A stretch of 39,783 nucleotides of DNA from a virus (lineage: Duplodnaviria; Heunggongvirae; Uroviricota; Caudoviricetes): the IMG/VR virus record IMGVR_UViG_2706794673_000014; one strand, written 5' to 3'. Positions 1 to 39,783 of the stretch are shown here, in pieces. The translations under genes and the position numbers were made by a program. The notes under the pieces were generated by a model. That model was not told the origin of the DNA and did not search any database. It saw only the letters and a list, made by a program, of their open reading frames with translations. Positions within the stretch are counted from its first letter, which is position 1; every line of letters starts with the position of its first letter.

Positions 1-459
1 TTATTCAGTCGGCAGTGCTACGCGCCAGGGGAGCAGTTCGCCGACCCGGTTTATCGGCCAGTCGGCTATGACGTCAAGGACATAGCGGAGGTAGCTTTCT
101 GGCTCCACTCCGTTCAGTTTGCACGTCCCGATCAGGCTGTACAGCAGCGCTCCCCGCTCTCCTCCATGATCCGAACCGAAGAACAGGTAGTTTTTGCGGC
201 CCAGACTGACCATCCGCAACGCATTTTCAGCGATGTTATTGTCCGCCTCAGCCCAGCCATCATCTGCATAGTACGTCAGCGCCGGCCACTGGTTCAGGGC
301 ATATGCGAACGCTTTCGCCAGTTCTGAGTGTCGCGACAGGGTTTTCATCTTTTCACGCAGCCAGCTTTCCAGGGATTTCAGCAGCGGTTTCGTTTTCAAC
401 TGACGTTCGGCAAGGCGCTGTTTCAGCAGGAAGATGTCGTCAGAAGAGATGTCGTTCAT
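1..459 (-). pseudogene. tnpC: IS66-family transposase (TnpC/Orf3) C-terminal fragment, roughly the last 150 aa; 5' two-thirds absent
   Basis: Translation ends ...NIAENALR...GRKNYLFFGSDHGGERGALLYSLIGTCKLNGVEPESYLRYVLDVIADWP, as recalled for IS66 TnpC C-termini; stop at 1-3; in-frame stop upstream at 520-522. Confidence 0.8.
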
Positions 460-545
460 AAGCCCGTATTTTACCGGGCTTATTCTGTGACAACCAGGAT
501 AAAGAGATTTACAGCATGGTCAGGGAGGTCAGCAGCCGCTTAGGC

Positions 546-640
546 TGTCTATAGCGCGGCGATTTTTTTGATACCGATTTGCATTTCATTTGATACCGCT
601 GAAAAACGCCGATACGCAACTTATTTGATACTAAATCGGC
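546..640. repeat. Right-end (attR-like) terminal repeat region: three closely spaced TTTGATAC(C/T) motifs at 567-575, 589-597, 624-632
   Basis: Motif read directly; inverted copies at the other end (39253-39261, 39158-39166, 39106-39114); tight spacing matches Mu attR R1-R3. Confidence 0.7.
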
Positions 641-677
641 GCTTTTCTTTTGAGTTTTAGAATGAGTTTTTAAGCGT

Positions 678-1415
678 TCATTCACTCTCTTTCAAACCAG
701 TTTTAACTGTTTGTGGTTTTGGGTAAGGCTGGACTTTGAATAGCTTTGTGTTAAGGCGTTTTCTGGCTCTCTTGTCCAGAAACCGGATGTAACGAAACTG
801 ACGGAATTTATGAACACTGGCTCTGTCGATATTAGCCCGCAGATGTTCACCTCGCTGTCCTCCTCGTTTGATTGCATTCTTGCAAATCTCGTGATACCAC
901 TCGCCATCAAGTTCATAGAATGTTGTTTCATGACTGCCTACATAATCAAAATTGCTTGCCTGGTACACGACACCAAGACAGCCACAACGCTCATCTGCAA
1001 ACGACTGAACCCACTGCACCTGCGGATAAAGTTGTCTGATTAGTTTGAGCGCGTAACTGATTGCCCTTGATTCGGAGTTTCTCGGCATACAGTCATGCAG
1101 CCATAACCGGTTAAGCTCCATATATTCGCGGTTCTGCGTGCCAGTTACGACGCGTGCACCATTGTTTGGATTAAGGGCATAACCCCATTGCATTACGCCA
1201 ACCAGCTCCCGTTCTGAAAATATGCCCAGATGAAGGTAGGAATTATTTACGAAACGATGGCTGTAATGTTTATTGACGACGACCAGCCGGGCCAGCCAGC
1301 AACTTATTGTCTCAACCCGTAACTCACGGGAGCCATAACCGACGATATTGTCGTTATAGTGAATAAGTTCAGGCGTGCTGATGATACGGGATGTAACTTG
1401 CTTTCTGTTCCCCAC
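678..1415 (-). CDS. mom: Mom-like DNA modification protein; start uncertain (GTG at 1415 with AAGGA 9 nt upstream proposed; the ORF track extends to 1610)
   Basis: Terminal gene next to attR-like end, overlapped by com 3' end, GATC cluster upstream, ~245 aa; identity inferred from context, not sequence recall. Confidence 0.55.
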
Positions 1416-1569
1416 GACAGGATTTCCTTGTGTATGTGGGGTGCTCTGTGGCGCTCTGAGATGTGATTTGATTGAGGGTTTTACAGCGCGGACATTTAAC
1501 TTCCAGATAACTGAAGCTGGCTCGTGCCAGTAGCTTGTTACAATGTCGGCACCGTATGTTTCGATACAT
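1369..1569 (-). CDS. com: Com zinc-finger translational activator of mom
   Basis: [14 protein letters not shown]...EVKCPRCK...EHPT matches recalled Mu Com (IRCKNCNKLL...EIRCPRCK...EHPT); ATG at 1567-1569 preceded by AGGAGG; stop overlaps proposed mom start region. Confidence 0.8.
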
Positions 1570-1616
1570 GGCCGCATAACCTCCTGCTTTGTTGTTGATA
1601 TCTTTATCACTCAATC

Positions 1617-1702
1617 GATCGACAAAAACGATCGATTTGATTTATTTAATTGATACAACAAATAACACGAAATGTCATTAGCGAAAATTTATGAGTTTGA
1701 TC
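1617..1702. promoter_or_regulatory. GATC cluster (1617-1620, 1630-1633, 1699-1702) and 8-bp inverted repeat ATCGATCG/CGATCGAT upstream of com-mom
   Basis: Read directly; Mu mom promoter is known to be controlled through Dam methylation of three upstream GATC sites (OxyR binding). Confidence 0.45.
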
Positions 1703-1825
1703 ACTAATTTTAAACGGTGCTGTAACGCATAAGTGCTGAATGATTGTACATTTGAATACCGCAAAGCAAACAAATCAACTAATTTATAGAAGTCAATTGG
1801 TTAATTGCCAGCGTAAGAGGCTGCT

Positions 1826-2119
1826 ATGGACAATCATGTAACGACGAGAAATCGAAAAATGATTGAAAATGCGGAAATCTATAATGATTATTTTTCCGAT
1901 TATTCAGATGCCTGCAAATACAGTTCGAGTGCGGGAGAGTTCATATGCTTCAACTTTTTTATTAAATCTTATGTTTTTCCTCCACAGCAAGAAGATGGAG
2001 GTGTGCCACCTCCTGAAATCACTTTGCACCGTATAGCCTCCGTCTCAATGATGGAGCAACAGGCTAATGAGCTGTATAGCATTCTGGGAACGATTCTACA
2101 AAAGCGTGAATCGGACTAA
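1826..2119 (+). CDS. Hypothetical protein, 97 aa, AT-rich, divergent from com-mom
   Basis: ATG at 1826 with AAGAGG 5 nt upstream; local GC far below the phage average; no recognisable motif. Confidence 0.5.
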   Translation: MDNHVTTRNRKMIENAEIYNDYFSDYSDACKYSSSAGEFICFNFFIKSYVFPPQQEDGGVPPPEITLHRIASVSMMEQQANELYSILGTILQKRESD

Positions 2120-2286
2120 TGATACCGGTTCATTTGCCTGCCCGGATGGGGAAGCAGGATTGACTGCTCCATAAGCAGCTATATTTCTGAATACGAAATA
2201 CTATCCAGCGATTACATATGGCTGGATAGCGGCAAAGATGTTTTCATTAGTGTCAAACCGGCAGAGGACACCACCGGTTTGTATTG

Positions 2287-2541
2287 TTACATCATGGTAC
2301 TGTCAGTTCCGGGCTGAGCCGGGTCTGGTTGCTCTGGCTGCGCGTCGGTTTTCGGCTCATTATCAGCATCACTGGCCGCAACTGCTGGCCCAATAAGTTT
2401 TGCCAGCACTTCATCAACGTAAGTGTCGATTTGTGCCTCAAAATCCTTGCGGACCTGCGCTTTCAGCAACTTATTTACTTCACCGGAATACAGTGCCTGT
2501 TTTACCAGGTCTTCAGTGACGGTGCCTTTAATTTCTGGCAT
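2287..2541 (-). CDS. Hypothetical acidic protein, 84 aa
   Basis: ATG at 2539-2541 with AAGGAGG 6 nt upstream; Asp/Glu/Pro-rich C-terminus. Confidence 0.6.
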   Translation of the reverse strand: MPEIKGTVTEDLVKQALYSGEVNKLLKAQVRKDFEAQIDTYVDEVLAKLIGPAVAASDADNEPKTDAQPEQPDPAQPGTDSTMM

Positions 2542-2576
2542 GTATATCCTCCTTATGCGGGAATAAAGCCCTGCAA

Positions 2577-2759
2577 TCAGGGCTGGGTCGGGTCTTTTGG
2601 GAGCGGAGTTACCTGCGCTGTTTTACTGAGTTTTTCAGCTGCTGCGTCCTCAATTTTGCGGCGAACATAATTTCTGATGGCCTTATAACCACCACTCACC
2701 AGATATAACGCACATACTGCCGTGCAGAAATACAATAAAATAAGCTGTAAAAATGTCAT
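2577..2759 (-). CDS. Small membrane protein, 60 aa, one predicted transmembrane helix
   Basis: ATG at 2757-2759 with GGGAGG upstream; hydrophobic N-terminus FLQLILLYFCTAVCALYLV followed by a basic stretch. Confidence 0.6.
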   Translation of the reverse strand: MTFLQLILLYFCTAVCALYLVSGGYKAIRNYVRRKIEDAAAEKLSKTAQVTPLPKDPTQP

Positions 2760-2855
2760 TATCCCTCCCAATTATTGACATGGTGTTGACACCGGTAATA
2801 TCTGTTAGGTAAAAAGGTGCACTGCATTTTTTGCTTTGGATATAACGATCTTTTT

Positions 2856-2897
2856 GCCGCCGGTTTCTTGTTTTCCCTTACCGGCGGCATTTTTTTA
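2856..2897 (+). terminator. GC-rich hairpin (GCCGCCGGT ... ACCGGCGGC) followed by T-run ATTTTTTTA; intrinsic-terminator-like on the plus strand
   Basis: 9-bp perfect stem, 15-nt loop, T-run 2889-2897; on the minus strand the hairpin is followed by A, so it is plus-strand specific. Confidence 0.45.
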
Positions 2898-2903
2898 TCC
2901 TGC

Positions 2904-4958
2904 TTACGCGTTATTCACTTCCACCACGATACTGTCAATCAGTACCGGGTAAGTCGCATTTTTAGTGATATCGGTCACGCGCAACTTGTCTGCCGTAAAC
3001 GTGCCGACCGGAGACTGCGACAGCATGAATGGTGTCCCGTCCTTACCATCAATGACCGGCGTCACCTCAATACTGTTGTTACCGGCAAAACGGAAGCCCA
3101 GCGTATGCCATTCGTTATTAAATGCGCCGAATGACCCCAGCTTCGTGTTCTGCGCCGTGTTTCCTTTGTGATACATCACGTTAAGGTCTGTGGCATCGCT
3201 CTGTACGTAGAACGATGCCAGCAGGTTATGACCGGCATTTCCTTCCAGAGTAACCCCTTGCGGCAGGGCAGAAACCGGCCAGTACAGCGCCAGTGCGTAC
3301 TGATTAGCCGTAAGCGCGCCATCGAGTTTAAAACGACAACTGACAAGACCACCTTTACCCAGCAGGTCCGCACCATTACCAGCATCATGCTCAAGGTACC
3401 AGGGGGCTCTTCCTGTTTCCTTGGTCAGTTTCATTGCCTTACCCCCGCTGGCTCCGGCATCATCCACGATTTGAGCCTTGCCACCTCCGGCAGCCCAACC
3501 CTGTGGTGTCAACCGTCCTTCAGACTCAGATGCCCGGTAAGCAAATAGCGTACTCATCGTCGTGGTGTCTGCGGGTGGCGTGGACGGTTTTGATGGTGTA
3601 TCAGGTGACGGCTTCTCATCCGGTGGTGTCACGGTCTGCCCACGCATCAGTTCAGCCGTGCGCCCTGCATGGAGCATAATAGCTGAGGCCAGACGGTCTG
3701 AAATGACGCCCCTGCGTGCCCATGAGCTGAAATGGCTGTCACGCTGTGTCGAAACAAAACTGCCCTGGGTTCGGGATGCTGCACCGTAATACCCGACAGC
3801 CACAATATCCGGGTCTTCCGCCGGAGCATTCGTTGGCGTGCTCTGTCCATTCTCATCCGTCAGGAACGGTACAAAGAAAATTTTCTGTGCTTCCTTGCCT
3901 TTGTAGCCACCGTATACTGCCTCATATTTATCGGTGCCAGCGTTTTTCCAGTAATACGTGGTATCACCGCAAATCCACGGCACCGTGGTGGCATTTCCAC
4001 TCACGCACTGCGCAGCAAGCGGAGCCAGGTCAGTTCTGAACTGCTGAACCATGGCCGTGAATAAACTATTATGCTGCTGGCTTCCTGAGGCAAGGTCTGC
4101 CTCTCCCTGCATCCAGACCACAGCCAGAAGTTTGTTTTTCGGGTTTTTCGCCAGCGCGACTTTGGTGCGGCTTACCAGGTCCTGATACAGAGGTTTACCG
4201 GCCCCCCAGCGTGAAGAATCAGCGGAAGCACCGCTGGCCTCACTGAATGAGCCGTCGGCTCCAGTGGTGAATGCTGACCCGCCACGACAACAGGGCACCA
4301 GAAGTATCCCGGCATTCTGTGGGATATAGGGAAGCAGTTTTTTGGCAATATGCAACCCCTGACCGACAGTCCCGTACTGGCCTTTTGCCAGATCAGCTTT
4401 CGGGTGGTTTATCCCGCTCATATCCTGAACATCATGCAGGCAGTGGTCTGCCGGAATGATGTCGTTGTATGTACACGACGTACCGTTGGGCGTTACCGTA
4501 CTGCGGCGTGCCAGTTGCTTAATGCGTGGGTCCGGGCGGTCAAACGAATCCGGTAACGGCAGCCCCTCGCCGTAGGCCATGCCATTTGACTGACCCGCGA
4601 GAATGACAACAAAGTAATATTCCGGCTCTGAACTGCTGCCATTCGTGCTACCGGAAGGCCCGGCGTTATCCGGTGCATTCCAGTCGGAGGGCGTGAGCGT
4701 TCCGGCCACGTCAGATGTGATTGGAATGATGCCAGTCACGCCTGAACTGGTGATTTCTGCACTGGGATTACCGGATACCGGCATTACCCATAATGGCTCT
4801 TTCGTGCTGAAGCGGATCACGCAGTCTGCGAAGGTGATCCCCCCTTTATTACCCGAAGGGCGGAAAGGGCTTTCAATAAATGCCACCGTGCCACCGGCAA
4901 CCTTGACTGAAAACTCTCCGGGCATGGCGGAGAGCATTTTCCACTTGGAGTCTGACAT
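2904..4958 (-). CDS. SGNH-hydrolase sialate O-acetylesterase-like protein (NanS/NanS-p-like), 684 aa, with Pro/Thr linker and C-terminal putative carbohydrate-binding domain
   Basis: Motif YYFVVILAGQSNGMAYGEGLPLPD and downstream blocks (NDIIPADHCLHDVQDMSG, LLVPCCRGGSAFT, HFSSWARRG) match recalled E. coli NanS (YjhS); linker TPPDEKPSPDTPSKPSTPP. Confidence 0.75.
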   Translation of the reverse strand: MSDSKWKMLSAMPGEFSVKVAGGTVAFIESPFRPSGNKGGITFADCVIRFSTKEPLWVMPVSGNPSAEITSSGVTGIIPITSDVAGTLTPSDWNAPDNAGPSGSTNGSSSEPEYYFVVILAGQSNGMAYGEGLPLPDSFDRPDPRIKQLARRSTVTPNGTSCTYNDIIPADHCLHDVQDMSGINHPKADLAKGQYGTVGQGLHIAKKLLPYIPQNAGILLVPCCRGGSAFTTGADGSFSEASGASADSSRWGAGKPLYQDLVSRTKVALAKNPKNKLLAVVWMQGEADLASGSQQHNSLFTAMVQQFRTDLAPLAAQCVSGNATTVPWICGDTTYYWKNAGTDKYEAVYGGYKGKEAQKIFFVPFLTDENGQSTPTNAPAEDPDIVAVGYYGAASRTQGSFVSTQRDSHFSSWARRGVISDRLASAIMLHAGRTAELMRGQTVTPPDEKPSPDTPSKPSTPPADTTTMSTLFAYRASESEGRLTPQGWAAGGGKAQIVDDAGASGGKAMKLTKETGRAPWYLEHDAGNGADLLGKGGLVSCRFKLDGALTANQYALALYWPVSALPQGVTLEGNAGHNLLASFYVQSDATDLNVMYHKGNTAQNTKLGSFGAFNNEWHTLGFRFAGNNSIEVTPVIDGKDGTPFMLSQSPVGTFTADKLRVTDITKNATYPVLIDSIVVEVNNA

Positions 4959-5030: not shown

Positions 5031-5063
5031 ATTCAAAAAAGCGTCACGGTACTTTTGGTGACG
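5031..5063 (-). terminator. Putative intrinsic terminator just after gin (6-bp GC-rich stem, then TTTTTT on the minus strand)
   Basis: Stem CGTCAC/GTGACG at 5042-5047 and 5058-5063 overlapping gin stop; plus-strand A-run 5035-5040. Confidence 0.45.
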
Positions 5064-5616
5064 GAGCTGGTGAGGCAGGAAAATAACGATAAAGGGTGGA
5101 AAGGCCAATATCAAATATCAGTGCGATTTGTTTACGGGACTCGCCATTAGCCAGCAAACGGGCGATTTGCTCCCGCTCTTTCTCTGTCAGTTTCTGAGGT
5201 CTGCCGCCATGACGCCCCTGAGCACGGGCAGCAGCAAGACCCGCGCGTGTACGTTCAATAATGAGTTCCCGCTCCATTTCCGCCAGCGCGCCCATTATAT
5301 GGAAAAAGAAACGTCCCATGGGAGTGGATGTATCAATATTGTCCGTAATGCTGCGGAAGTTAACGCCGCGTTGCCGGAGTTCTTCTGTTAAAAGGACAAG
5401 GTGCTGCATACTGCGTCCAAGGCGATCCAGTTTCCAGACCAGCAGGGTATCCCCTGGCCGGAGTCGCTTTAATGCGCGTTTAAGTCCGGGACGCTCCCTT
5501 GTCTTACCGCTTATTCTGTCTTCGAAAAACAGCTCACATCCTGCACATTCCAGCGCATTTCTTTGTAGCGCCGTATTCTGGTCATTTGTTGACACCCTGA
5601 TATACCCAATCAGCAT
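5044..5616 (-). CDS. gin: Gin/Hin/Pin-family serine DNA invertase
   Basis: MLIGYIRVSTNDQ...LLVWKLDRLGRSMQHL...GRFFFHIMGALAEMERELIIERT closely matches recalled Mu Gin; sits beside the invertible segment. Confidence 0.93.
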   Translation of the reverse strand: MLIGYIRVSTNDQNTALQRNALECAGCELFFEDRISGKTRERPGLKRALKRLRPGDTLLVWKLDRLGRSMQHLVLLTEELRQRGVNFRSITDNIDTSTPMGRFFFHIMGALAEMERELIIERTRAGLAAARAQGRHGGRPQKLTEKEREQIARLLANGESRKQIALIFDIGLSTLYRYFPASPAPSPKVP

Positions 5617-5681: not shown

Positions 5682-5707
5682 TTCCTGAAAACCTCGGTTT
5701 ACGGGAA
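5682..5707. repeat. gix-like recombination site 1 (TTCCTGAAAACC-TC-GGTTTACGGGAA), core 5694-5695
   Basis: 26-bp imperfect palindrome with 12-bp half-sites and 2-bp core; resembles recalled Mu gix/hix sites. Confidence 0.75.
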
Positions 5708-6055
5708 ACGGTAAACAGGGCGGCGAATGCTCTGCCATCGGACGGCACCGCCGTTGCCGCGAATAGACTCGCCACCCCAAGAAATATTAATGGGGTTCCC
5801 TTTGACGGGACGCAGGACATAAACATCACTTCTGGTATAACACAGCAGGATGCGGATTCCCGATATATCCAGGATATCAGGCTGGGAGCAGAGAACAGGC
5901 AGGTAATGTACGGTGGGGCATATTACTCTGCGTACGGTAATGTTATGGCAGGCCTGCAGATTGACAGTAAAGTTGATGCTTCAAACGATTTTATAGCATT
6001 CAGACCCCTGCAAAAATTAGTCGGAGGTACATGGATTACGGTATCTCAGTTATAA
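5696..6055 (+). CDS. Alternative tail-fibre C-terminal cassette (Sv'-like), start-less; would fuse in frame to the constant part of S after inversion
   Basis: Open frame from crossover to stop 6053-6055 encoding [25 protein letters not shown]...FRPLQKLVGGTWITVSQL; first 23 aa identical to the corresponding part of S; no start codon. Confidence 0.65.
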   Translation, partial: GLRETVNRAANALPSDGTAVAANRLATPRNINGVPFDGTQDINITSGITQQDADSRYIQDIRLGAENRQVMYGGAYYSAYGNVMAGLQIDSKVDASNDFIAFRPLQKLVGGTWITVSQL

Positions 6056-6659: not shown

Positions 6660-7541
6660 TTATATACTTGCAGCCGTCACCCATGCTCCATTTAACAGAT
6701 ACTGCAACGGCCGGTAATACACGCCGCCGACGTTATCTGCCGTATTCTTACCGACATCCTGTACTTTAATTCCGGTAAGAACATTGCCGCCCCCCAGATT
6801 CAGATCCCAGCTTTCCCATGTTCCGGGCATATGTGCGGTCACCGACCCCAGTCTTATGGCGGTTACTGTTCCTGATGAGATAGTGATATCCTGCGTCCCG
6901 TCAAAGGGAACACCATTAATTGTGTGGGCATTTGCCAGCCTGTTCGCGGCAACGGCGGTGCCGTCCGATGGCAGGGCATTCGCCGCCCTGTTTACCGTTT
7001 CCCGTAAACCGACGTTATCGATAAAAGCCCCTTTATCCGGAATGTCTGCGCCGTTCTGCTCCCTGCGCAGGTAACGGTTATCACCTTCGCTTTTGCTGTA
7101 AACATCCAGATTATTACGGGCGGTTCCCTTATTCTCCAGGTCGGCGAGATTCTGATCCTTCGCCAGGGCATTAACGTCAGCGGGACCAAGACTGTTTTTT
7201 GTGGCAAGCGTCCCCAGACCAAGATAACCACGGGCCAGACGCTGGGCCTCCGCACCGGCATCAGCAATTTCTTTCAGGTTATTTTTCCGGGAAAAGGCAT
7301 TCGCAGCGATAATGGCTTTAATGGACAGCGTAAGCTGGTTTAACTGCGCCTTATCCGGCTGAATACTGGCTTCAGCCAGAATATTCAGCAGTTCGGCCTG
7401 GAGAATATTCAGCCAGTCCTGACCAATCCAGCTGATACCTTTTTGTCCGTCACCTTCGGTAAACCAGGTGGTGGTATTACTCTGCGCCGGTGCCAGCGCA
7501 GGCATATTCGCCACGCCGGAATTATTATCAACATGAAACAT
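6660..7541 (-). CDS. Tail fibre protein (Mu S-like); C-terminal ~75 aa encoded inside the invertible segment
   Basis: N-terminus [30 protein letters not shown] matches recalled Mu S; reading frame passes through gix site 2. Confidence 0.85.
6999..7024. repeat. gix-like recombination site 2 (TTCCCGTAAACC-GA-CGTTATCGATAA), core 7011-7012, inside the S gene
   Basis: Inverted relative to site 1; outer half-site TTATCGATAACG resembles recalled Mu gixL TTATCCAAAACC. Confidence 0.75.
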
Positions 7542-8101: not shown

Positions 8102-9192
8102 GTGATTTCTCCTACCGTCAGCAGCTCACTGTCTCCCGCCTGAACTGACGTCAGCGGACTGCGCACTTCAAAATCCTCCAGATTTTTCACCCCTGCCACC
8201 GCCCGCCAGAAAGACGACGGCAGAACCAGACCGCCGGGCCGGGATTCGTTATACAACAGGTCGGTCAGCGCCTGTTTTACGGCCGCCTGATTCTCCGGTG
8301 TTTTCGGGATGATCCTGATGCTGAAGGGCACCGGCTTATTGGTCAGTTTAAACACGGTCACCGTCGGCCCCAGAGGCTGTCCGACAGGCTGGCCGGTCGC
8401 CGGATCATCATGACTGCGGATATAATCCGCCACCCGCTGAACATCACCGTCACCGGGGAAAATATCCGGGTTATTATCCTGAACAAACGTTACCCCCACG
8501 CTGCCCGCCTGCGGCCATTCCGGGCGGCACCATGCCCGCGTCACGCCCGGCACTTCACGCGCCCAGCGTTCAAAATCATACTGCGTGCCGNNNNNNNNNN
8601 NNNNNNNNNNNNNNNNNNNNNNNNNNNNNNNNNNNNNNNNNNNNNNNNNNNNNNNNNNNNNNNNNNNNNNNNNNNNNNNNNNNNNNNNNNNNNNNNNNNN
8701 NNNNNNNNNNNNNNNNNNNNNNNNNNNNNNNNNNNNNNNNNNNNNNNNNNNNNNNNNNNNNNNNNNNNNNNNNNNNNNNNNNNNNNNNNNNNNNNNNNNN
8801 NNNNNNNNNNNNNNNNNNNNNNNNNNNNNNNNNNNNNNNNNNNNNNNNTAAACCACGCCATCACTTCGCTGGAGAAGCACACCTTCCTTGATCCCCGCAT
8901 CCGTGGTCAGCATCAGCTGAACCGGCCCGTCCCCCCGAGAGGCAGGCTTACGCATGACGCCCCAGAATGCACAGTGTTTCAGCAGTTCGGCTTCATCGGC
9001 TTCGGTCGGGATGATCTGACGCGCAATCCAGGCCAGATGCTCATGCTCCTGAGCAGATAACCCTGCCTGAGCGTAAGCAATGGCATTCAGGGTGGTTTCA
9101 TTCACACCCGGCTGCGAGCCGGGCAGGCGCTGGCTGATATCCTGCTGTGTCTGCGTGATTAACTGTGCCAGCGGTAAAGGCTGATAAGGCAT
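8092..9192 (-). CDS. Baseplate J-like protein (Mu gp47-like); interrupted by N-run 8591-8848
   Basis: Size and position in baseplate cluster; both flanks of the gap read as one frame. Confidence 0.7.
   Translation of the reverse strand: MPYQPLPLAQLITQTQQDISQRLPGSQPGVNETTLNAIAYAQAGLSAQEHEHLAWIARQIIPTEADEAELLKHCAFWGVMRKPASRGDGPVQLMLTTDAGIKEGVLLQRSDGVVXXXXXXXXXXXXXXXXXXXXXXXXXXXXXXXXXXXXXXXXXXXXXXXXXXXXXXXXXXXXXXXXXXXXXXXXXXXXXXXXXXXXXXXGTQYDFERWAREVPGVTRAWCRPEWPQAGSVGVTFVQDNNPDIFPGDGDVQRVADYIRSHDDPATGQPVGQPLGPTVTVFKLTNKPVPFSIRIIPKTPENQAAVKQALTDLLYNESRPGGLVLPSSFWRAVAGVKNLEDFEVRSPLTSVQAGDSELLTVGEITWL
8591..8848. other. Run of N (unsequenced or masked)
   Basis: Read directly. Confidence 1.
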
Positions 9193-15354: not shown

Positions 15355-15765
15355 TTACTGGACACGGGTACTGGTGGCGCTGGCGAACTTCGCGGAGATA
15401 TCACCACCACCGTCAAGCGAGGCCGGTTCACTGCTCCAGGCCTTCGTCATCATGTGGACTTCACCGGTATCGGCCANNNNNNNNNNNNNNNNNNNNNNNN
15501 NNNNNNNNNNNNNNNNNNNNNNNNNNNNNNNNNNNNNNNNNNNNNNNNNNNNNNNNNNNNNNNNNNNNNNNNNNNNNNNNNNNNNNNNNNNNNNNNNNNN
15601 NNNNNNNNNNNNNNNNNNNNNNNNNNNNNNNNNNNNNNNNNNNNNNNNNNNNNNNNNNNNNNNNNNNNNNNNNNNNNNNNNNNNNNNNNNNNNNNNNNNN
15701 NNNNNNNNNNNNNNNNNNNNNNNNNNNNNNNNNNNNNNNNNNNNNNNNNNNNNNNNNNNNNNCTT
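15355..15765 (-). CDS. Tail tube protein (only C-terminal ~40 aa visible; remainder in N-run 15477-15762)
   Basis: Open frame ending ...GGGDISAKFASATSTRVQ with stop at 15355-15357; located between sheath and chaperone. Confidence 0.4.
   Translation of the reverse strand, partial: KXXXXXXXXXXXXXXXXXXXXXXXXXXXXXXXXXXXXXXXXXXXXXXXXXXXXXXXXXXXXXXXXXXXXXXXXXXXXXXXXXXXXXXXXXXXXXXXXADTGEVHMMTKAWSSEPASLDGGGDISAKFASATSTRVQ
15477..15762. other. Run of N (unsequenced or masked)
   Basis: Read directly. Confidence 1.
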
Positions 15766-15768
15766 ACC

Positions 15769-17280
15769 TCACAAAATGAAACGGATCTGCGCGGCCATGA
15801 AGCGGAACTGGTTAACCAGATCCGGTGTACACATCACATCCAGACGGTTACGNNNNNNNNNNNNNNNNNNNNNNNNNNNNNNNNNNNNNNNNNNNNNNNN
15901 NNNNNNNNNNNNNNNNNNNNNNNNNNNNNNNNNNNNNNNNNNNNNNNNNNNNNNNNNNNNNNNNNNNNNNNNNNNNNNNNNNNNNNNNNNNNNNNNNNNN
16001 NNNNNNNNNNNNNNNNNNNNNNNNNNNNNNNNNNNNNNNNNNNNNNNNNNNNNNNNNNNNNNNNNNNNNNNNNNNNNNNNNNNNNNNNNNNNNNNNNNNN
16101 NNATCCAGATAGCTGGGATCGATTTCGCCGTATGCATTCTGACGGTACATCGTCACCTGACGTTCAATCTGCACCACATCCGCGGCCGCGACGGTCACCG
16201 TGGACATGCCGGTATAAAGCAGGCTGTTTCGCTCTTCCCGCGTCAGACGATCCGGTGCTTCAGGTGCCATACGGGCAGGCAGCGCCAGTGTCTGTAATGG
16301 TCGGGCCGGATCCGTTGACAGGGAGGGCGCACAGACCGCACAAATGGAGGCAGCCCAGACATAATCCGGCTCTGGTGCTTTAGGAATAGAAGTGCAGGTA
16401 AACAGGAAGTCATTACGGGATTCACCAAAACTGGTTGCCGTACCGAAGGTGCCGGTATGCGCCATCCAGACCATACCGTCCGACATTTTTACCGGTCCCC
16501 AGCGTTTCAGCAGTTCATCCGCCAGAATTTTGAGATTTGCCGCATCCTTATAGGGCATGACGATGTAGTTGTACTGACGATTCCCCATCCCTGAGACGCT
16601 ACGGGTGATATCGGGGTTTGTTGCCTTCTGTGTTGGCGCGACGAGCTCCAGCGTAAGACCGGCCGGTGTAGTTTCACCGTCATAATAGTTCACCCGTAAA
16701 TCATGAGCTGAGCATTCACCGATAAAGCGGGCGTTAACCCCCATGCTGCCTTTAAGTCCTTCAGCATTATCACCACTGACTTCAGCTGCGATAGCAGTGA
16801 ATGGCGCATCAGTGTCAGCGTTAATGACCTTNNNNNNNNNNNNNNNNNNNNNNNNNNNNNNNNNNNNNNNNNNNNNNNNNNNNNNNNNNNNNNNNNNNNN
16901 NNNNNNNNNNNNNNNNNNNNNNNNNNNNNNNNNNNNNNNNNNNNNNNNNNNNNNNNNNNNNNNNNNNNNNNNNNNNNNNNNNNNNNNNNNNNNNNNNNNN
17001 NNNNNNNNNNNNNNNNNNNNNNNNNNNNNNNNNNNNNNNNNNNNNNNNNNNNNNNNNNNNNNNNNNNNNNNNNNNNNNNNNCTTGTGAAGCTCGGGTAAT
17101 ACGTACTGGTACATCAAGCTGACCGCGCCCCTGAATGGTAGTGTCTTTCATTGCAGCCTGACCAAACAACAGTACCGCCTGACGCTGTGGTGGAGTGCCG
17201 GTCACGGCCATTGAATTATTGATTTCAATCTGTACCAGCGGAATGCGATTGTTATCGCCGATATAATCAAAGTTAATCAT
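15769..17280 (-). CDS. Contractile tail sheath protein (Mu L-like); interrupted by two N-runs
   Basis: N-terminus MINFDYIGDNNRIPLVQIEINNSMAVTGTPPQRQAVLLFGQ is typical of sheath N-termini; C-terminal frame ends ...AAQIRFIL at 15769; frames differ across gaps. Confidence 0.75.
15853..16102. other. Run of N (unsequenced or masked)
   Basis: Read directly. Confidence 1.
16832..17081. other. Run of N (unsequenced or masked)
   Basis: Read directly. Confidence 1.
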
Positions 17281-18940: not shown

Positions 18941-19888
18941 TTACAGATAATCCGCGACAACCAGCTCCAGCTTGCCCTTCATCTCGTTAGAGACTGTGGC
19001 GTTACCGTCTGCGAACAGCTCGCGCTCCAGCAGCTGCACCGCCTGTTTTTCCAGCGAGGTGGGGACAACAATATGGGTGGGTTTGATGCCGAGTTTGCGG
19101 CCACCGTCAGCCTTAAAGTCACGCATGGCTGACCAGCCGTGCCACAGCGCATCCAGCGTCAGCGGTGACTGCATCATGTAGGCCATCTGCCAGAAGCCGT
19201 AGCCCACATTGCGACGGGCGGAAGCACCGAACACAAACTCGTTATCAGTAAACGCACGGCCTTCATCGACTTTTGTCTGGGCAACCAGTTCGGCTTTGCG
19301 GCGATCCTGATAAATCAGCGGTTTTACCGCGCGGGAGCAGTCAAGCAGATACCAGGCCGGGCCGCTGTAATCCGCCTGTGCACCGACAGAGCCGGTTTTT
19401 GCCACAAACATATTGCTGACCATCTGTGCATCACCGGAGCCATCCACTTTGGGGTAAACAGGGTGTTCGGTATCAAAGAAGTTCTGGCCGTCATAGCAGG
19501 CCGCATTCAGACCATCACGCAGTGCAGCAAAGACCAGTTCATCCGGTTGTGCCGCAGCGGCACGACCCATTTCCTGGAATAACGGGGAGTAGATGCCGAG
19601 ATTGTCGTCTTCAAAGTCATCGCGGCTAATGGCAACGGTGCCTTCAAAGGTTTTGTTCACGATGGCGTAGCCATAGGCTTTCATCTTCTCGATGACGCGG
19701 GAGCCGATCCACTCACGGAACTGCGGGAACTGCCCCAGCCAGCCGTAGGTGTTGGATTTCGAGGTGGACGGCACGGTCATCGCAATTTTCTGGTACTGCG
19801 ACGGAGCCATGGACATCCCGGCCTGAAAATCAGAACGGTAGCCCGTCATCAGGGCGGTGATCATCGCCGGTGTAATCGGGGTAGGCAT
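18941..19888 (-). CDS. Major capsid protein (Mu T-like)
   Basis: 315-aa ORF following protease/scaffold gene; size and order. Confidence 0.8.
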   Translation of the reverse strand: MPTPITPAMITALMTGYRSDFQAGMSMAPSQYQKIAMTVPSTSKSNTYGWLGQFPQFREWIGSRVIEKMKAYGYAIVNKTFEGTVAISRDDFEDDNLGIYSPLFQEMGRAAAAQPDELVFAALRDGLNAACYDGQNFFDTEHPVYPKVDGSGDAQMVSNMFVAKTGSVGAQADYSGPAWYLLDCSRAVKPLIYQDRRKAELVAQTKVDEGRAFTDNEFVFGASARRNVGYGFWQMAYMMQSPLTLDALWHGWSAMRDFKADGGRKLGIKPTHIVVPTSLEKQAVQLLERELFADGNATVSNEMKGKLELVVADYL

Positions 19889-29195: not shown

Positions 29196-29699
29196 TCATG
29201 GTGTTCTCTGAGTCAGCGTAACCGTGAGGAAAAGGGGGCAGGATTTGCGGAATATCANNNNNNNNNNNNNNNNNNNNNNNNNNNNNNNNNNNNNNNNNNN
29301 NNNNNNNNNNNNNNNNNNNNNNNNNNNNNNNNNNNNNNNNNNNNNNNNNNNNNNNNNNNNNNNNNNNNNNNNNNNNNNNNNNNNNNNNNNNNNNNNNNNN
29401 NNNNNNNNNNNNNNNNNNNNNNNNNNNNNNNNNNNNNNNNNNNNNNNNNNNNNNNNNNNNNNNNNNNNNNNNNNNNNNNNNNNNNNNNNNNNNNNNNNNN
29501 NNNNNNNNNNNNNNNNNNNNNCCGCCTGAGCAGGTTCAATCCCCTGACGGTGCAGTTCAGCACTGATCACATCAACCAGGTCCCGCAGCGTGCCGGGCCA
29601 GTTCTTTTTCAGCTCATCATCAGGAATATCATCCAGACGGTCAATCAGCGCGTGCAGCTGTTCGCTGTCACCAAACATGCTCATCTGTGTTTCAGCCAT
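29196..29699 (-). CDS. Mor/C-family transcription activator; only the N-terminal ~59 aa (29521-29699) are readable, the rest lies in N-run 29258-29520
   Basis: N-terminus MAETQMSMFGDSEQLHALIDRLDDIPDDELKKNWPGTLRDLVDVISAELHRQGIEPAQA resembles recalled Mu Mor; position between gemA and lys. Confidence 0.6.
   Translation of the reverse strand: MAETQMSMFGDSEQLHALIDRLDDIPDDELKKNWPGTLRDLVDVISAELHRQGIEPAQAXXXXXXXXXXXXXXXXXXXXXXXXXXXXXXXXXXXXXXXXXXXXXXXXXXXXXXXXXXXXXXXXXXXXXXXXXXXXXXXXXXXXXXXXXIFRKSCPLFLTVTLTQRTP
29258..29520. other. Run of N (unsequenced or masked)
   Basis: Read directly. Confidence 1.
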
Positions 29700-33915: not shown

Positions 33916-34473
33916 TTACCCCTGTTGATTAAATTCATTACCGTTAATAACCCCGGAAGCCATGCCTCTGTCTTTCATGAATGCACTGGCTTNNNNNNNN
34001 NNNNNNNNNNNNNNNNNNNNNNNNNNNNNNNNNNNNNNNNNNNNNNNNNNNNNNNNNNNNNNNNNNNNNNNNNNNNNNNNNNNNNNNNNNNNNNNNNNNN
34101 NNNNNNNNNNNNNNNNNNNNNNNNNNNNNNNNNNNNNNNNNNNNNNNNNNNNNNNNNNNNNNNNNNNNNNNNNNNNNNNNNNNNNNNNNNNNNNNNNNNN
34201 NNNNNNNNNNNNNNNNNNNNNNNNNNNNNNNNNNNNNNNNNNNNNNNNNAACCGAATCATGGCATTAAAGGCTTCTTCCTCCGTCACCGCTTCCGGTATC
34301 CCCGGAACCAGTAACTGCTCCTGTTCATCACGTCCATGACGCGCCATAACCTCAATCACATGCCGTACCGTGGCAGGCTTTCCGGCAACTATCGGCAATG
34401 CACCTTCCGGCAGGACGTAACCAAACTCAATAAGACCACTCGACCACGCCCATGCAATGAGATTTTTTTTCAC
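33916..34473 (-). CDS. Hypothetical early protein, interrupted by N-run 33993-34249
   Basis: N-terminal 74 aa readable; remainder within gap. Confidence 0.45.
   Translation of the reverse strand: MKKNLIAWAWSSGLIEFGYVLPEGALPIVAGKPATVRHVIEVMARHGRDEQEQLLVPGIPEAVTEEEAFNAMIRXXXXXXXXXXXXXXXXXXXXXXXXXXXXXXXXXXXXXXXXXXXXXXXXXXXXXXXXXXXXXXXXXXXXXXXXXXXXXXXXXXXXXXXASAFMKDRGMASGVINGNEFNQQG
33993..34249. other. Run of N (unsequenced or masked)
   Basis: Read directly. Confidence 1.
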
Positions 34474-34741: not shown

Positions 34742-34969
34742 TTAGCTGACTTGTTTCGCACCAACAGAACGGCATATTCCGCTGTAAACTTCTGTCGCAC
34801 CTTCGCGATCAAGTCCGGCAGATATCACCATTCGTGTGCGGTCATTAAATTCAAAAAGTAAATCGCCACATTCTTTATTTTCGGCCAGTGAAATCACCTT
34901 CACGTTATCGAAATTAACCAGGTAAAAGCGTCCGTAAATATCAGGAATATTAAATACCGCCATAATCAC
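34742..34969 (-). CDS. Hypothetical protein, 75 aa, at the position and size of Mu kil
   Basis: First gene after B; size ~74 aa as in Mu kil; position only. Confidence 0.4.
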   Translation of the reverse strand: MIMAVFNIPDIYGRFYLVNFDNVKVISLAENKECGDLLFEFNDRTRMVISAGLDREGATEVYSGICRSVGAKQVS

Positions 34970-35907
34970 ACCTGTGAGAGTAATTCAGGGTTGGTATAAA
35001 CCTCTTTAAAGGCCGCATTAATATGTTTTTCTGTCAGCGCCGCGCCTTCACCGCTGGCGGTGAGCCACGCCTGGTTAAGCGTATGTGTCAGAACGCGTAA
35101 CGCTCCCGGCTTTTCAGCGATAGCCTGCATGACGGCCAGCTCGGCCTCACCACTGATCCCCCACGCCATGGCAATGGCCAGCACATCCGCCTTTTTGGCC
35201 TTGCGAAGTTGTTTTGTACGGGCAAGACGGCTGAACAGGCGCGATAAATCATCAAAGGCGCGGCGTCCACCTTTAAACAATCCGCGCGGGTTACCAATAA
35301 GCACCATCCCGATCCCCGTGGCGTCCTGAATTGCCCGGAGTTGCTCCAGACCGTCAATACCAAGATGATCCGCCTCATCCACAATCACCAGTCCACGCGT
35401 TCCCATCAGGCGACGGCGGATGGCGCGGGATAATGCCCCTTTGTTCGCGCGGGTGTAATCAATCCCCAGCGCATCGGCCAGCTCCAGCAGACACTCCGTG
35501 ACGCTGGAGTGCGCGGGTGACAGGGTGATCATCCAGGTGTTTGGTTGCTCCTGGCAGTAATTACGGGCAGTGGCCGTTTTACCCACACCCGGTACGCCCA
35601 CAATAACGTTAATACAGCCCATCAGGCGAACCGCCTGAAACAGTGCGCGCAGCTCCTGGACTGTCTGAGTTTCCACAAACTGCGGCGGTTCCGGCAGTGC
35701 GCTTTGTTTATTCCAGTTCTCATACCAGGAGCGCAGGGAAGCAGCCACAGCAGCGTTATCGCCTTTATATTTTCCCTTACGGAAAGCCGATAATGTGCCG
35801 TCGGAAATTCCCGCCTCTCTGGCGATGGCATACTGCGTCAGTACGCCGCCATCAATAAGTTCATCAATGGTCTTGATTACATCGTTAATATCGGTCATAT
35901 TATTCAC
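34966..35907 (-). CDS. B: MuB-like AAA+ transposition target-capture ATPase
   Basis: Walker A VGVPGVGKT, LVIVDEADHLG Walker B, ...KPGALRVL...; closely matches recalled Mu B. Confidence 0.92.
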   Translation of the reverse strand: MNNMTDINDVIKTIDELIDGGVLTQYAIAREAGISDGTLSAFRKGKYKGDNAAVAASLRSWYENWNKQSALPEPPQFVETQTVQELRALFQAVRLMGCINVIVGVPGVGKTATARNYCQEQPNTWMITLSPAHSSVTECLLELADALGIDYTRANKGALSRAIRRRLMGTRGLVIVDEADHLGIDGLEQLRAIQDATGIGMVLIGNPRGLFKGGRRAFDDLSRLFSRLARTKQLRKAKKADVLAIAMAWGISGEAELAVMQAIAEKPGALRVLTHTLNQAWLTASGEGAALTEKHINAAFKEVYTNPELLSQV

Positions 35908-35980: not shown

Positions 35981-38068
35981 TCAGGCCAGCGGATCACTTT
36001 CTTTTAATTTCGCTTCGAGCAGTTGCAATCCCCGCTGGAAATTACGCTCGTATTCTTCATCAGGTTCATCGTCAGCGACCGGTTGCTGAACGGTCACCGT
36101 ATTACCCACAGGGCGGTATATGTTTTCCAGCCAGGGCTCCTGCGGCTTGTGCTCCAGCACGTTGACAACCTCATCCTCGGCATCACGGATTTTTTCCTCT
36201 GCGCGTTTACGCATGCCTTTAAGGCGCTGCTGCTGTTTGTAGTATTCCGCGCTGACAGGGAAGGCTTCGCGTTTATTGCCGTCCCATACCGCCTCGCAAA
36301 TCACGCTGCCATCCGGGCGGCGCACGGTAATTCGTTCGGCATCATGAATGTCATAGCTGATAAGTACCTTACGGCCATGCTCGTCACGCAGCTCGGGCGC
36401 GTAGTAAATATTATTCAGCCAGCGTATTTCACAGCGTCTTACAGGGCGCTCCACCATCGGCCGGAACATATCCCGCAGTTCAACATCGGACAGCCATTCA
36501 ATTTCCGTGTCCTCTTCCGCCAGGCGTTTTTTTCTGAACTCCGCCGGGCTGTAATGTTTACCGTTCGGCTTCATGGGTAATTCATCGTGCGGCCGGTTGT
36601 TGTACCACTCAACACCGTCACGAATGGCATCAATCAGTTCAGACCAGGACGGTAAATCACGCATCGCTGACTGCTGCCGGGCGTTCAGCCGTTTGCCCTG
36701 TTGCAGGGCACTGAATGCCGAGCGTAAATCGCGGTTGGTTTTACGTAACGTCTCGCGATCTGCTCCTTTCCCGAAATAGGTGCGGTATTTACGGGCTATG
36801 CGCATCGGTAATGTGCGGTTAAGCCGTTCGATAATGCCCCGTCCCTGCGGATTACCGGCAATCCCTGTCGGGTGATTAATCCCCAGTCGTGGCAGTATCC
36901 CCACAATCTCCTTATCCAGGACGTCGGCGGTTTCCCCGGAGCCATTATCCGAGTAATACAGAAACGGTTTGCCATGATGGCGAATACCGTGCTGTATGGC
37001 ACCGGCTACGGCGAAAACATTTTCAGCCAGGTCAAGGCTCCAGCCCACCACAAAGCGCGTGCCACCGTCGATAACAAAGGTCACTTCCGGTGCGAATGGC
37101 CGCCCGTGAACCGGGTGCGCGCATTTCAGCTTCATGCCGTGACCGTCACCAATCCAGACATAATTCACCGGCATTCTGGACCAGTCGCGGCGCGTGAATC
37201 CCTCAAGCTGACGGTATTCACTGCCAGTTACCCGGCCTTTTTGTTTCACCACTTCCGGCAGTTTCTTCATTGCGCGGCGAATGGTGTCATAAGAGGGCAT
37301 GATATCGAGCATATAAGGCTCATCAGCGTGCCGGTGCTGCCATTCAGCAACAAAATCCTCGTAAGCCTCGGTCATTGGTCGGCCGTTTGACTGGCGATAC
37401 TGCGCCAGAAATTCGGGCAGCCAGTTAATATCTTCGGCTTTTATTTCCTGGCGTTTACCCGGTGCCAGTAAAAGCAGGCGTTCAGCGGCGTTCTGTGCCT
37501 TGTTAAAGGCCGCAATCCAGCGTTTCAGCGTGATTTCACTCAACGCGCGGCTGTTTCCCTTTTTGGCGTTCGCCGTCTCAACCATTGCCACAATGCGCTC
37601 GTCCAGTTGTGATCGTGCCAGGCTGTTAACGAGGAACCGGATAGCTTTAGCGCAGCTGAAACCGGGTTGTTGCGTGAATTTCAGCACCTCACTGACGATC
37701 GCAATGCGTGCGTCTGCCACCTGGCGCTGGTTTTCAGTCAGGGCATTGAGGCGTTCGACCATCAGTTGTGGTGATCCGCGATATGCCTCCACCGCATCAA
37801 CCACGGCAGACGAGCGTCTGGCCTTTGTCACCACCGGAGCCGGTGATTCATCGGCTTTTTGCGTCATCAGTTGCAGGGCATAACGTTCGCGTAATGCCTG
37901 CTGTGTCACTTCAGGTAAACAGTCAATGCTGTATTCAAAACCTTTAGCGCCTTTCTTGCGGCGTCTGCTGGTTTCGCTGGTTGCATACTTCCTGATTGAA
38001 TAGCGAACGCCTTGCTCCGTTCCCGGCATCCCCGGTAATCCAACCAGTTCTTTAACTGAAGCAAACAT
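35981..38068 (-). CDS. A: MuA-like DDE transposase
   Basis: 695-aa ORF between ner and B; N-terminal end-binding-like region; length and order as Mu A. Confidence 0.93.
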   Translation of the reverse strand: MFASVKELVGLPGMPGTEQGVRYSIRKYATSETSRRRKKGAKGFEYSIDCLPEVTQQALRERYALQLMTQKADESPAPVVTKARRSSAVVDAVEAYRGSPQLMVERLNALTENQRQVADARIAIVSEVLKFTQQPGFSCAKAIRFLVNSLARSQLDERIVAMVETANAKKGNSRALSEITLKRWIAAFNKAQNAAERLLLLAPGKRQEIKAEDINWLPEFLAQYRQSNGRPMTEAYEDFVAEWQHRHADEPYMLDIMPSYDTIRRAMKKLPEVVKQKGRVTGSEYRQLEGFTRRDWSRMPVNYVWIGDGHGMKLKCAHPVHGRPFAPEVTFVIDGGTRFVVGWSLDLAENVFAVAGAIQHGIRHHGKPFLYYSDNGSGETADVLDKEIVGILPRLGINHPTGIAGNPQGRGIIERLNRTLPMRIARKYRTYFGKGADRETLRKTNRDLRSAFSALQQGKRLNARQQSAMRDLPSWSELIDAIRDGVEWYNNRPHDELPMKPNGKHYSPAEFRKKRLAEEDTEIEWLSDVELRDMFRPMVERPVRRCEIRWLNNIYYAPELRDEHGRKVLISYDIHDAERITVRRPDGSVICEAVWDGNKREAFPVSAEYYKQQQRLKGMRKRAEEKIRDAEDEVVNVLEHKPQEPWLENIYRPVGNTVTVQQPVADDEPDEEYERNFQRGLQLLEAKLKESDPLA

Positions 38069-39032: not shown

Positions 39033-39105
39033 TAGCATTAGCCCGCATTTTGCACTATATCGAGTATTTCGCATTGTTTGGAACGCCTTAAAAGACTAAA
39101 ACCAC

Positions 39106-39286
39106 AGTATCAAATGAGTTGCCGATTTTATAATAAATGACTAATTATTGCACAATCGGTATCAAATAGACCTTATCCGCACATCTAGCCATCACCTGTT
39201 TTATTTCAGTATCTTACAGGTGATTTCACCTCCTTTCACTAAACCCCTTGTCGGTATCAAATGATTCACCTGGTTATATGTCGCCA
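39106..39286. repeat. Left-end (attL-like) terminal repeat region: one GGTATCAAA motif at the terminus (39253-39261), two more 95 and 147 bp inward (39158-39166, 39106-39114)
   Basis: Inverted copies of the right-end motif; spacing (one terminal site, gap, two internal) matches Mu attL L1-L3. Confidence 0.7.
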
Positions 39287-39589
39287 GTCGATACCTTCCA
39301 GCAGCATCGCCAGCTGCGCCTGTGTAAGGAACACTTTGCCATCACGGGCTGACGGCCAGGCGAAGCGCCCACGCTCCAGCCGTTTGGTCAGGAGGCACAG
39401 TCCGTCACTGGTGGACCACAGCAGTTTAACCTGACTGCCGCTGCGGCCCCGGAAAATGAAAACATGGCCGGACATGGGATCGTCTTTCAGCGCCGTCTGT
39501 ACTTTCGCAGCCAGGCCGTTGAAGCCATTTCTCATATCGGTGATACCGGCAACCAGCCAAATTTTGATCCCGGAAGGTAACGGGATCAT
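39266..39589 (-). CDS. tnpB: IS66-family TnpB (Orf2); C-terminus may be altered by the prophage junction
   Basis: MIPLPSGIKIWLVAGITDMRNGFNGLAAKVQ...LWSTSDGLCLLTKRLERGRFAWP typical IS66 Orf2; ATGA overlap with upstream orf at 39586-39589. Confidence 0.9.
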   Translation of the reverse strand: MIPLPSGIKIWLVAGITDMRNGFNGLAAKVQTALKDDPMSGHVFIFRGRSGSQVKLLWSTSDGLCLLTKRLERGRFAWPSARDGKVFLTQAQLAMLLEGIDWRHITR

Positions 39590-39783
39590 CGCTTCAGTTC
39601 CTGTATCAGCAGAGTCAGGAGCTTTTCGCTGACATTGCCATTGAAGCGGAGCGTCCCGTGCCGGAACGTTACCTCACAGCTGATACTGAGGGTTTTCGGG
39701 TCCTCTGCGAGCGATTCTGGCTGTTCGGCAGCTGCATCGAGAGTCACAGGAAGTAGCTGGGGGCTCTCTGAAGAAGGTAATAG
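39586..39783 (-). CDS. tnpA: IS66-family TnpA (Orf1), 3' portion; 5' end beyond window
   Basis: Open minus-strand frame to window edge ending in TGA overlapping the tnpB ATG (classic IS66 orf1/orf2 arrangement). Confidence 0.7.
   Translation of the reverse strand, partial: LLPSSESPQLLPVTLDAAAEQPESLAEDPKTLSISCEVTFRHGTLRFNGNVSEKLLTLLIQELKR

Follow-up and report, generated by a model that had tools for sequence, protein, structure and literature searches.

A NanS-p-type esterase gene with an unclassified amino-terminal domain is fixed in Sp18-like, Mu-like phages of Escherichia coli

The viral sequence IMGVR_UViG_2706794673_000014, a stretch of 39,783 nucleotides that is termed here the window, carries at positions 2904-4958 of the minus strand a sialate O-acetylesterase gene of the nanS-p type, in a Mu-type variant. 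Its product is probably a sialate 9-O-acetylesterase of the NanS-p family that serves as a fixed accessory module of the Sp18-like, Mu-like transposable phages of Escherichia coli. The gene itself is no discovery, since its sequence is common, automatically annotated and present in a reference genome of 2001. What is new is the domain layout: an esterase of the NanS-p family, fixed in Sp18-like transposable phages, whose amino-terminal domain has been exchanged for an unclassified one.

The gene is an intact, uninterrupted open reading frame (ORF) of 684 amino acids that starts at an ATG and contains neither N nor X. The protein is a member of PHROG 143 (E=1.7e-296). Amino acids 117-312 match the Pfam family SASA (PF03629, E=1.5e-13, over the gathering score) and amino acids 533-650 match DUF6645 (PF20350, E=7.4e-68). 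In a sequence search of the PDB, E. coli NanS/YjhS (3pt5) aligned with amino acids 110-428 (E=1.8e-117) and the carboxyl-terminal domain of NanS-p (6yp6) with amino acids 469-683 (E=7.1e-98). The assignment to the NanS/NanS-p family, which the first-pass annotation had proposed from the letters alone, is upheld by these matches. The motif that it had quoted, YYFVVILAGQSNGMAYGEGLPLPD, is found at amino acids 114-137, and the catalytic serine sits in the GQSN context on which the proposal had been staked beforehand. Both catalytic residues are kept: Ser124 (codon 4587-4589, minus strand) lies in the GQSN block ILAGQSNGMAY and His409 (codon 3732-3734, minus strand) in QRDSHFSS. They align with positions 30 and 312 of the 3pt5 chain, as counted from the PDB alignment, and the corresponding catalytic residues of NanS are reportedly Ser19 and His301 (Rangarajan et al. 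2011).

On the minus strand the protein is laid out as follows. Amino acids 1-97 (4668-4958) form a lineage-specific domain, predicted to be all-beta, in place of DUF1737. A Gly/Ser/Asn-rich linker (amino acids 98-112, 4623-4667), where homology to lambdoid alleles breaks off, joins it to the SASA/SGNH catalytic domain (amino acids 110-430, 3669-4631). A Pro/Thr/Ser-rich interdomain linker (amino acids 431-468, 3555-3668; sequence ...TVTPPDEKPSPDTPSKPSTPPADTTT...), the segment that varies most between homologues, leads to the carboxyl-terminal lectin-like jelly-roll domain (DUF6645; amino acids 469-684, 2907-3554). The Pro/Thr linker announced in the first-pass annotation is there, its Pro/Thr-rich stretch covering amino acids ~444-467, and the lectin-like nature of the carboxyl terminus agrees with 6yp6 and DUF6645, its measured size being ~215 amino acids instead of the ~190 proposed. 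The amino-terminal extension, put at ~130 amino acids, is in fact a folded domain of ~95 amino acids plus a Gly/Ser linker of ~15, NanS homology starting at amino acid ~110. The most distinctive trait of the protein had been overlooked, namely that its amino-terminal region is unrelated to the DUF1737 domain of lambdoid NanS-p.

The distribution of the gene was surveyed in 5426 complete E. coli genomes. The gin-esterase junction comes in two types. Type A, that of the window, was found in 28 genomes (39 places), and type B, that of O157:H7, in 205 genomes (246 places). The com and mom genes of this lineage are present in 233 genomes (~4%), a count that equals the 28 type A and 205 type B genomes together, and a genome may hold up to 3-4 copies of the lineage. 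In none of the genomes does a type-A gin directly adjoin com. The order gin, esterase, DUF1378, DUF826, opposite-strand ORF, com, mom was found in all eight E. coli prophages inspected, which are those of the window, DLI.5a, JE86-ST05, OkiPb01714, 2012EL-2448, O157:H7 FRIK2533, 90-3040 and O157:H7 Sakai. These Mu-like prophages reside in different hosts at unrelated chromosomal sites: in ypdB (DLI.5a), next to rhsC/ybfB (JE86-ST05), next to aslB (OkiPb01714), in hofC (2012EL-2448), dcuC (FRIK2533), comEC (90-3040) and sorM (Sakai), and in an IS66 element (window). The DLI.5a copy is the remnant of a deleted prophage in which the esterase ORF is still intact. The esterase is a fixed part of the Sp18-like, Mu-like phage lineage and not sporadic cargo. 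The exact window protein is found on at least 1000 public contigs under the automatic names 'sialate O-acetylesterase', 'YjhS' and 'DUF6645 domain-containing protein'.

Individual prophages of the survey show further particulars. In 90-3040 (locus L042, 5463-6669) and in SW070917 com is followed not by mom but by a gene annotated as coding for a DNA cytosine methyltransferase, so that a different DNA-modification gene appears to stand behind the same Com regulator. The prophage copy in dcuC of FRIK2533 (locus L041) adjoins the host nanRATEK sialic-acid operon, which is probably a coincidence given the random insertion of Mu.

The O157:H7 Sakai element is annotated as 'prophage Sp18, Mu-like phage' (region ECs_4992-ECs_4998). 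Its esterase gene, ECs_4993, is labelled 'hypothetical protein' and its product is 66% identical to the window protein over the full length; no published characterisation of ECs_4993 was found. Sp18 is intact and its DNA is efficiently packaged (PMC2669165). The first-pass annotation had been unable to place a nanS-p gene as cargo of a transposable phage. The same arrangement was already present in Sp18 and in the ~4% of complete E. coli genomes given above, so that in genomic terms it can be placed. As to the literature, the remark stands: a full-text search found no paper that ties nanS-p or sialate O-acetylesterase to Mu-like phages or to ECs4993, an earlier mention in the primary NanS/NanS-p papers being possible.

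NanS-p proteins were recently described as proteins of Stx/lambdoid phages (Stx, Shiga toxin) with a DUF1737-SASA-carboxyl-terminal domain organization (PMC10462455). Amino acids 1-97 of the window protein match no Pfam or PHROG family, and PF08410 (DUF1737) is not detected in the protein even at E<=1. That the region is a diverged DUF1737 was rejected by profile-profile comparison (hhalign probability of 0.3%) and is also disfavoured by its predicted all-beta structure, DUF1737 being described as a helix and three strands. A HMMER search of 1.84 billion cluster representatives yielded four matches to the domain. Three come from the same fusion protein as fragments: two are frameshifted E. coli sequences and one is a Salmonella fusion; the fourth (E=6e-4) looks unrelated. 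Two scans of the GTDB species representatives found no copy, and in IMG/VR the domain is present only in the two E. coli lineages, with no Salmonella type. Every copy of the domain that was found is joined to one of these esterases and comes from a Mu-like prophage, in E. coli, Shigella or Salmonella. In a Salmonella enterica contig, genes for a Mu-like baseplate, tail fibre and gin are followed by a 30%-identical amino-terminal domain fused to a GQSN esterase, where the contig ends.

AlphaFold2 (AF2), run on a six-sequence alignment, predicts a five-stranded all-beta fold for the amino terminus, with a predicted local distance difference test (pLDDT) of 74-90 over amino acids 1-80, followed by a disordered linker (pLDDT <50 over amino acids 82-108). 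Modelling of the full-length protein from its single sequence gave a pLDDT of 33, and the only usable model is that of the amino terminus from the six-sequence alignment. A fold search returned only a generic small cupin-like barrel, with no match to known decoration proteins. Between the window and Sakai, the nonsynonymous divergence (dN) of the amino-terminal domain is 0.27 and its synonymous divergence (dS) is saturated; dN/dS is 0.09 in SASA and 0.18 in the carboxyl-terminal domain. A dN of 0.27 at saturated synonymous sites indicates that the amino-terminal region is a constrained protein domain.

The remainder of the protein is shared with lambdoid NanS-p. Among the 120 best homologues, proteins of 640-655 amino acids combine PF08410 (DUF1737), SASA and DUF6645, and those of 678-691 amino acids have SASA and DUF6645 only, PF08410 being absent in the 22 Mu-type ones. 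The window protein is 87% identical to lambdoid NanS-p P0060 over amino acids 98-684 (BLASTP), and no alignment is obtained before residue 98. At the DNA level, window positions 2880-4628 are 91.5% identical to a lambdoid locus (L006, in a prophage of strain 317), the match stopping exactly at the linker that precedes the catalytic domain. The same segment is only 69.7% identical to the type-B Mu-like loci L003/L004, whose com/mom are 94% identical. The 22 type-A proteins have 97-100% identity to the window protein in the amino-terminal domain (87-88% in two entries truncated at the amino terminus), 81-100% in SASA and 81-100% in the carboxyl-terminal domain; for 86 lambdoid proteins the corresponding values are ~14%, 79-93% and 81-95%. 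The domain identities and the DNA mosaic together imply that the catalytic and lectin parts have been shuffled by recombination with lambdoid alleles of the same genomes. Relative to lambdoid nanS-p alleles the catalytic and lectin domains form a mosaic, and the amino-terminal domain is the constant, lineage-specific part.

The genes downstream point to the same connection. In the strain 317 prophage the order is Q, tRNAs, esterase (647 amino acids), DUF1378, DUF826, holin and lysozyme, and the trio esterase-DUF1378-DUF826 is common to lambdoid and Mu-like prophages. A comparison of the DUF826/DUF1378 stretch with the phage collection (DNA and tblastn) retrieved no more than two records, both of Stx phages into which a Mu-like phage has inserted, so the lambdoid link of these two genes rests on Pfam families and synteny and not on close sequence identity. 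The two records, LC727895.1 and LC727881.1, are Stx-converting phages of ~93 kb each that hold an inserted Mu-like phage of the lineage at 92% identity; the esterase-bearing phage can therefore ride inside Stx prophages.

The following scheme is proposed for the enzyme. The SGNH/SASA domain, acting via Ser124 and His409, would strip O-acetyl groups from 5-N-acetyl-9-O-acetylneuraminic acid (Neu5,9Ac2), either free or on mucin glycans, and the lectin-like jelly-roll domain may aid glycan binding. Neither a signal peptide nor a membrane segment was detected in the esterase (maximum Kyte-Doolittle value over 19 residues of 1.03), and for this reason the protein would be released either by phage-induced lysis of the cell or carried on the virion. 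The host nan pathway would then be able to use the sialic acid freed of its O-acetyl groups, to the benefit of the surviving lysogen population. Activity on Neu5,9Ac2 and mucin is inferred because the catalytic domain has 79-93% identity to lambdoid alleles, several of which are reported active. Esterase activity was reported for every NanS-p allele tested from EDL933 and O104:H4, and those lambdoid alleles that were assayed remove acetyl groups from Neu5,9Ac2 and from mucin glycans and let lysogens grow on Neu5,9Ac2 (review PMC8065619).

Several points weigh against this scheme. The esterase activity and substrate of the Mu-type alleles are deduced from their relatives; the timing of expression, the release route and the role of the amino-terminal domain are likewise only inferred, and the scheme leaves the function of this domain unexplained. 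Sp18 is not inducible by mitomycin (PMC2669165), unlike Stx phages, whose induction drives nanS-p expression, so that release by lysis would rest on spontaneous induction. No promoter could be assigned to the esterase gene: a sigma-70 scan gave nothing above the expectation from shuffled sequence, and nothing convincing is found in the 85-bp gin-esterase spacer. Downstream of the gene, 16 nucleotides past the stop codon, RNAfold predicts a GC-rich hairpin (2856-2888, minus strand; 10-bp stem, -20 kcal/mol). On the coding strand it is followed by an A-run and preceded by an A7U run, and because this strand has no U-tract the hairpin looks like a terminator for the opposite strand only. It is absent from the output of the terminator scan. 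The DNA homology to the lambdoid locus reaches position 2880 and thus covers only the proximal arm of this hairpin.

A rival account concerns the deployment of the enzyme and not its chemistry. The amino-terminal domain might be the Mu-type counterpart of DUF1737 and anchor the esterase to the capsid or tail; the particle would then carry a mucin-modifying activity for mucus adherence or penetration, and the enzyme would not be a lysogenic-conversion factor only. We regard this as a tentative and rather unlikely reading, and it has a precedent in phage phi24B, in which the NanS-p homologue gp84 places its DUF1737 domain as hexamers on the capsid hexons and is present at full length in fresh virions (bioRxiv 10.64898/2026.04.10.717836). 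In its favour, the interdomain linker is the precise point of the domain swap, the new domain is confined to Mu-like prophages, where it is seen in three lineages at identities down to 30%, and P2-like phages keep DUF1737. The amino-terminal domain is moreover under purifying selection and, within type A, nearly invariant in a protein that is otherwise shuffled, as fits a part matched to a co-inherited structural partner. The clean replacement of DUF1737 at the linker, the restriction to Mu-like phages and this constancy make a virion-anchor role an attractive hypothesis. On the other side, the cupin-like barrel found in the fold search is generic and matches no known decoration protein, no stand-alone copy of the domain was found, whereas most DUF1737 proteins are single-domain, and a long distance separates the gene from the head and tail modules. 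A wider form of this idea, which seems to us possible but doubtful, is that virion display was retained across unrelated temperate phages of E. coli by a swap of anchors, with DUF1737 in lambdoid and P2-like phages and the new domain in Mu-like ones. If true, NanS-p would no longer be a metabolic enzyme of lysogenic conversion but a conserved device by which the phage particle interacts with mucus, and the amino-terminal domain would represent a new family of domains that decorate the capsid or tail.

The target of the enzyme could also lie on bacteria. The esterase might de-O-acetylate O-antigen, capsular polysialic acid or similar polymers instead of host mucin, for phage adsorption or release or for modification of the lysogen surface. 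Such a role has been raised for NanS-p generally (review PMC8065619), and it would suit a protein with a lectin-like domain that is borne by phages of three families or more (lambdoid, P2-like and Mu-like). It is improbable, since the catalytic domain aligns with a bona fide Neu5,9Ac2 esterase, NanS, over the whole of the 3pt5 match given above, the tested lambdoid alleles act on Neu5,9Ac2 and mucin glycans (PMC8065619), and the gene is outside the tail-fibre module and codes for nothing like a tail spike in architecture. That the gene is an inert passenger, a decaying remnant taken from a lambdoid prophage and now devoid of function, is hardly credible. Carrier genomes do hold several lambdoid nanS-p copies, at up to 5 places per genome, which makes redundancy possible. 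A remnant does not account for an ORF that is intact in each of the eight prophages inspected, including the deleted one of DLI.5a, for the kept catalytic residues, for the low dN/dS of the SASA and carboxyl-terminal domains and an amino-terminal dN of only 0.27 where dS is saturated, or for junction counts that add up to all 233 genomes of the lineage. A sialate 9-O-acetylesterase that acts on Neu5,9Ac2, free or on mucin glycans, and is fixed in the Sp18-like lineage is the reading we prefer.

NanS-p esterases are discussed as fitness- or virulence-associated cargo of lambdoid Stx prophages. The same enzyme is fixed in the Sp18-like phages of ~4% of complete E. coli genomes, among which many are from STEC (Shiga toxin-producing E. 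coli), and the Mu-type gene should therefore be counted when the nanS-p alleles of a strain are tallied. The catalytic and lectin domains are exchanged with lambdoid alleles across phage families, and DUF1737, a capsid anchor in phi24B, is replaced in the Mu-like lineage by a different, unclassified domain. This replacement bears on whether virion display is a conserved purpose of NanS-p enzymes.

The esterase gene lies in a complete Mu-like (Sp18-like) prophage that occupies positions 550-39276 on the minus strand. Homology to other lysogens starts and ends at these coordinates, which makes them approximations of the exact prophage termini. MuA is encoded at 35981-38068 (Pfam Mu-transpos_C and HTH_Tnp_Mu_1) and MuB at 34966-35907 (Pfam Phage-MuB_C and AAA). 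The window also codes for Gam, GemA, a Mor/C family protein (at about 29196-29614), the Mu portal, the gpT major head protein (18941-19888) and baseplate proteins, as seen from Pfam and from strain JE86-ST05, whose near-identical prophage is annotated gene by gene as a Mu-like phage. The context named in the first-pass annotation, a Mu-like transposable phage, is therefore correct, with the esterase between gin and com/mom. The upstream neighbour, separated from the esterase gene by the 85-bp spacer, is a gin-type DNA invertase gene (5044-5616, minus strand; Pfam Resolvase and HTH_7), beyond which inverted repeats (5687-5835 and 6871-7019) bracket an invertible tail-fibre segment.

Downstream, also on the minus strand, are the gene for a small DUF1378 membrane protein of 60 amino acids (2577-2759; PF07125, E=9e-32; PHROG 494) and the gene for an 84-amino-acid DUF826 protein (2287-2541; PF05696, E=6e-16; PHROG 311). 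They are followed by com (1369-1569, minus strand; Pfam Zn_ribbon_Com) and, at the right end of the phage, by mom (678-1415, minus strand; Pfam Mom), both also identified from the annotation of identical DNA in loci L001 and L002. In phage Mu itself com comes 94 bp after gin, and because the two are adjacent there, the gin-com block of ~3.4 kb, made of the esterase gene, DUF1378, DUF826 and a variable small ORF on the opposite strand, is an insertion relative to Mu. In the window this small ORF (1859-2119, plus strand; 86-97 amino acids) is an orphan between DUF826 and com, in a spacer of 39% GC (1615-2286), and belongs to no Pfam or PHROG family. Its slot in the Sakai-type lineage is filled by another ORF of ~154 amino acids (ECs_4996, often frameshifted), and it looks like a variable moron position. 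The com gene has an upstream region to itself, which includes a perfect inverted repeat, AATCGATCG-N7-CGATCGATT (1613-1637). This repeat contains two GATC sites ~45-70 nucleotides upstream of the com start and is reminiscent of the control region of the Mu mom promoter, which is sensitive to Dam methylation.

At both ends of the prophage (560-640 and 39100-39262) repeated GGTATCAAAT / ATTTGATACC motifs cluster, which are probably transposase-binding sites of the Mu-like phage. The flanks (1-549 and 39277-39783) are parts of an IS66-family insertion sequence (IS) that do not abut: the carboxyl-terminal ~150 codons of tnpC are on one side and tnpB is on the other, ~1.1 kb of tnpC being apparently missing. 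The tnpB stop codon, at 39266, falls within the final bases that the window has in common with a different lysogen of this phage. The arrangement points to an insertion accompanied by a deletion beside it, or to two copies of the IS. In DLI.5a a 5-bp target duplication, CAGTT, fits if the prophage ends are put at ATAGCG...GGTTACA; in the window, whose flanking IS66 parts are not contiguous, four of the five bases match (TGTC). The window also contains six runs of N of 250-286 nucleotides (8591-8848, 15477-15762, 15853-16102, 16832-17081, 29258-29521 and 33993-34249). Dips of low GC content at 15-17 kb, 29 kb and 34 kb were considered as foreign islands and rejected, as they coincide with these runs; the dips and the X-filled ORFs are artefacts of the N runs.

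Compared with known systems, the window gene agrees in architecture, position and phage lineage with ECs_4993 of Sp18 and its STEC relatives, with which it shares the Mu-type amino-terminal domain. The two differ in sequence, the proteins being only 66% identical; for the type-B lineage to which Sp18 belongs, the gin-esterase DNA is ~70% identical to the window and the backbone 91-94%, as measured on L003/L004. Chromosomal NanS (YjhS, 3pt5) has a homologous catalytic domain, with the GQSN serine and the RxSHFS histidine, but is a single-domain protein of ~330 amino acids that is devoid of both the amino-terminal and the carboxyl-terminal lectin-like domains. The esterases of P2-like phages (for example Escherichia phage vB_EcoM-569R5, Peduoviridae) are likewise phage cargo outside lambdoids with a homologous catalytic domain; unlike the window protein they keep a DUF1737-type amino terminus, as judged by inspection of the sequence, and their genes adjoin lysis genes. 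NanS-p of lambdoid Stx phages (L0105/z1466 of 933W; vb_24B_21, or gp84, of phi24B) shares with the window protein SASA and DUF6645 at 79-95% identity, the Pro/Thr linker, the lack of a signal peptide and the DUF1378 and DUF826 genes downstream. Its amino terminus is DUF1737, the capsid anchor of phi24B, where the window protein has an unrelated beta domain of ~95 amino acids. The lambdoid gene is found between Q/stx and the holin gene under late antitermination control, whereas the window gene is located between gin and com/mom of a transposable myovirus.

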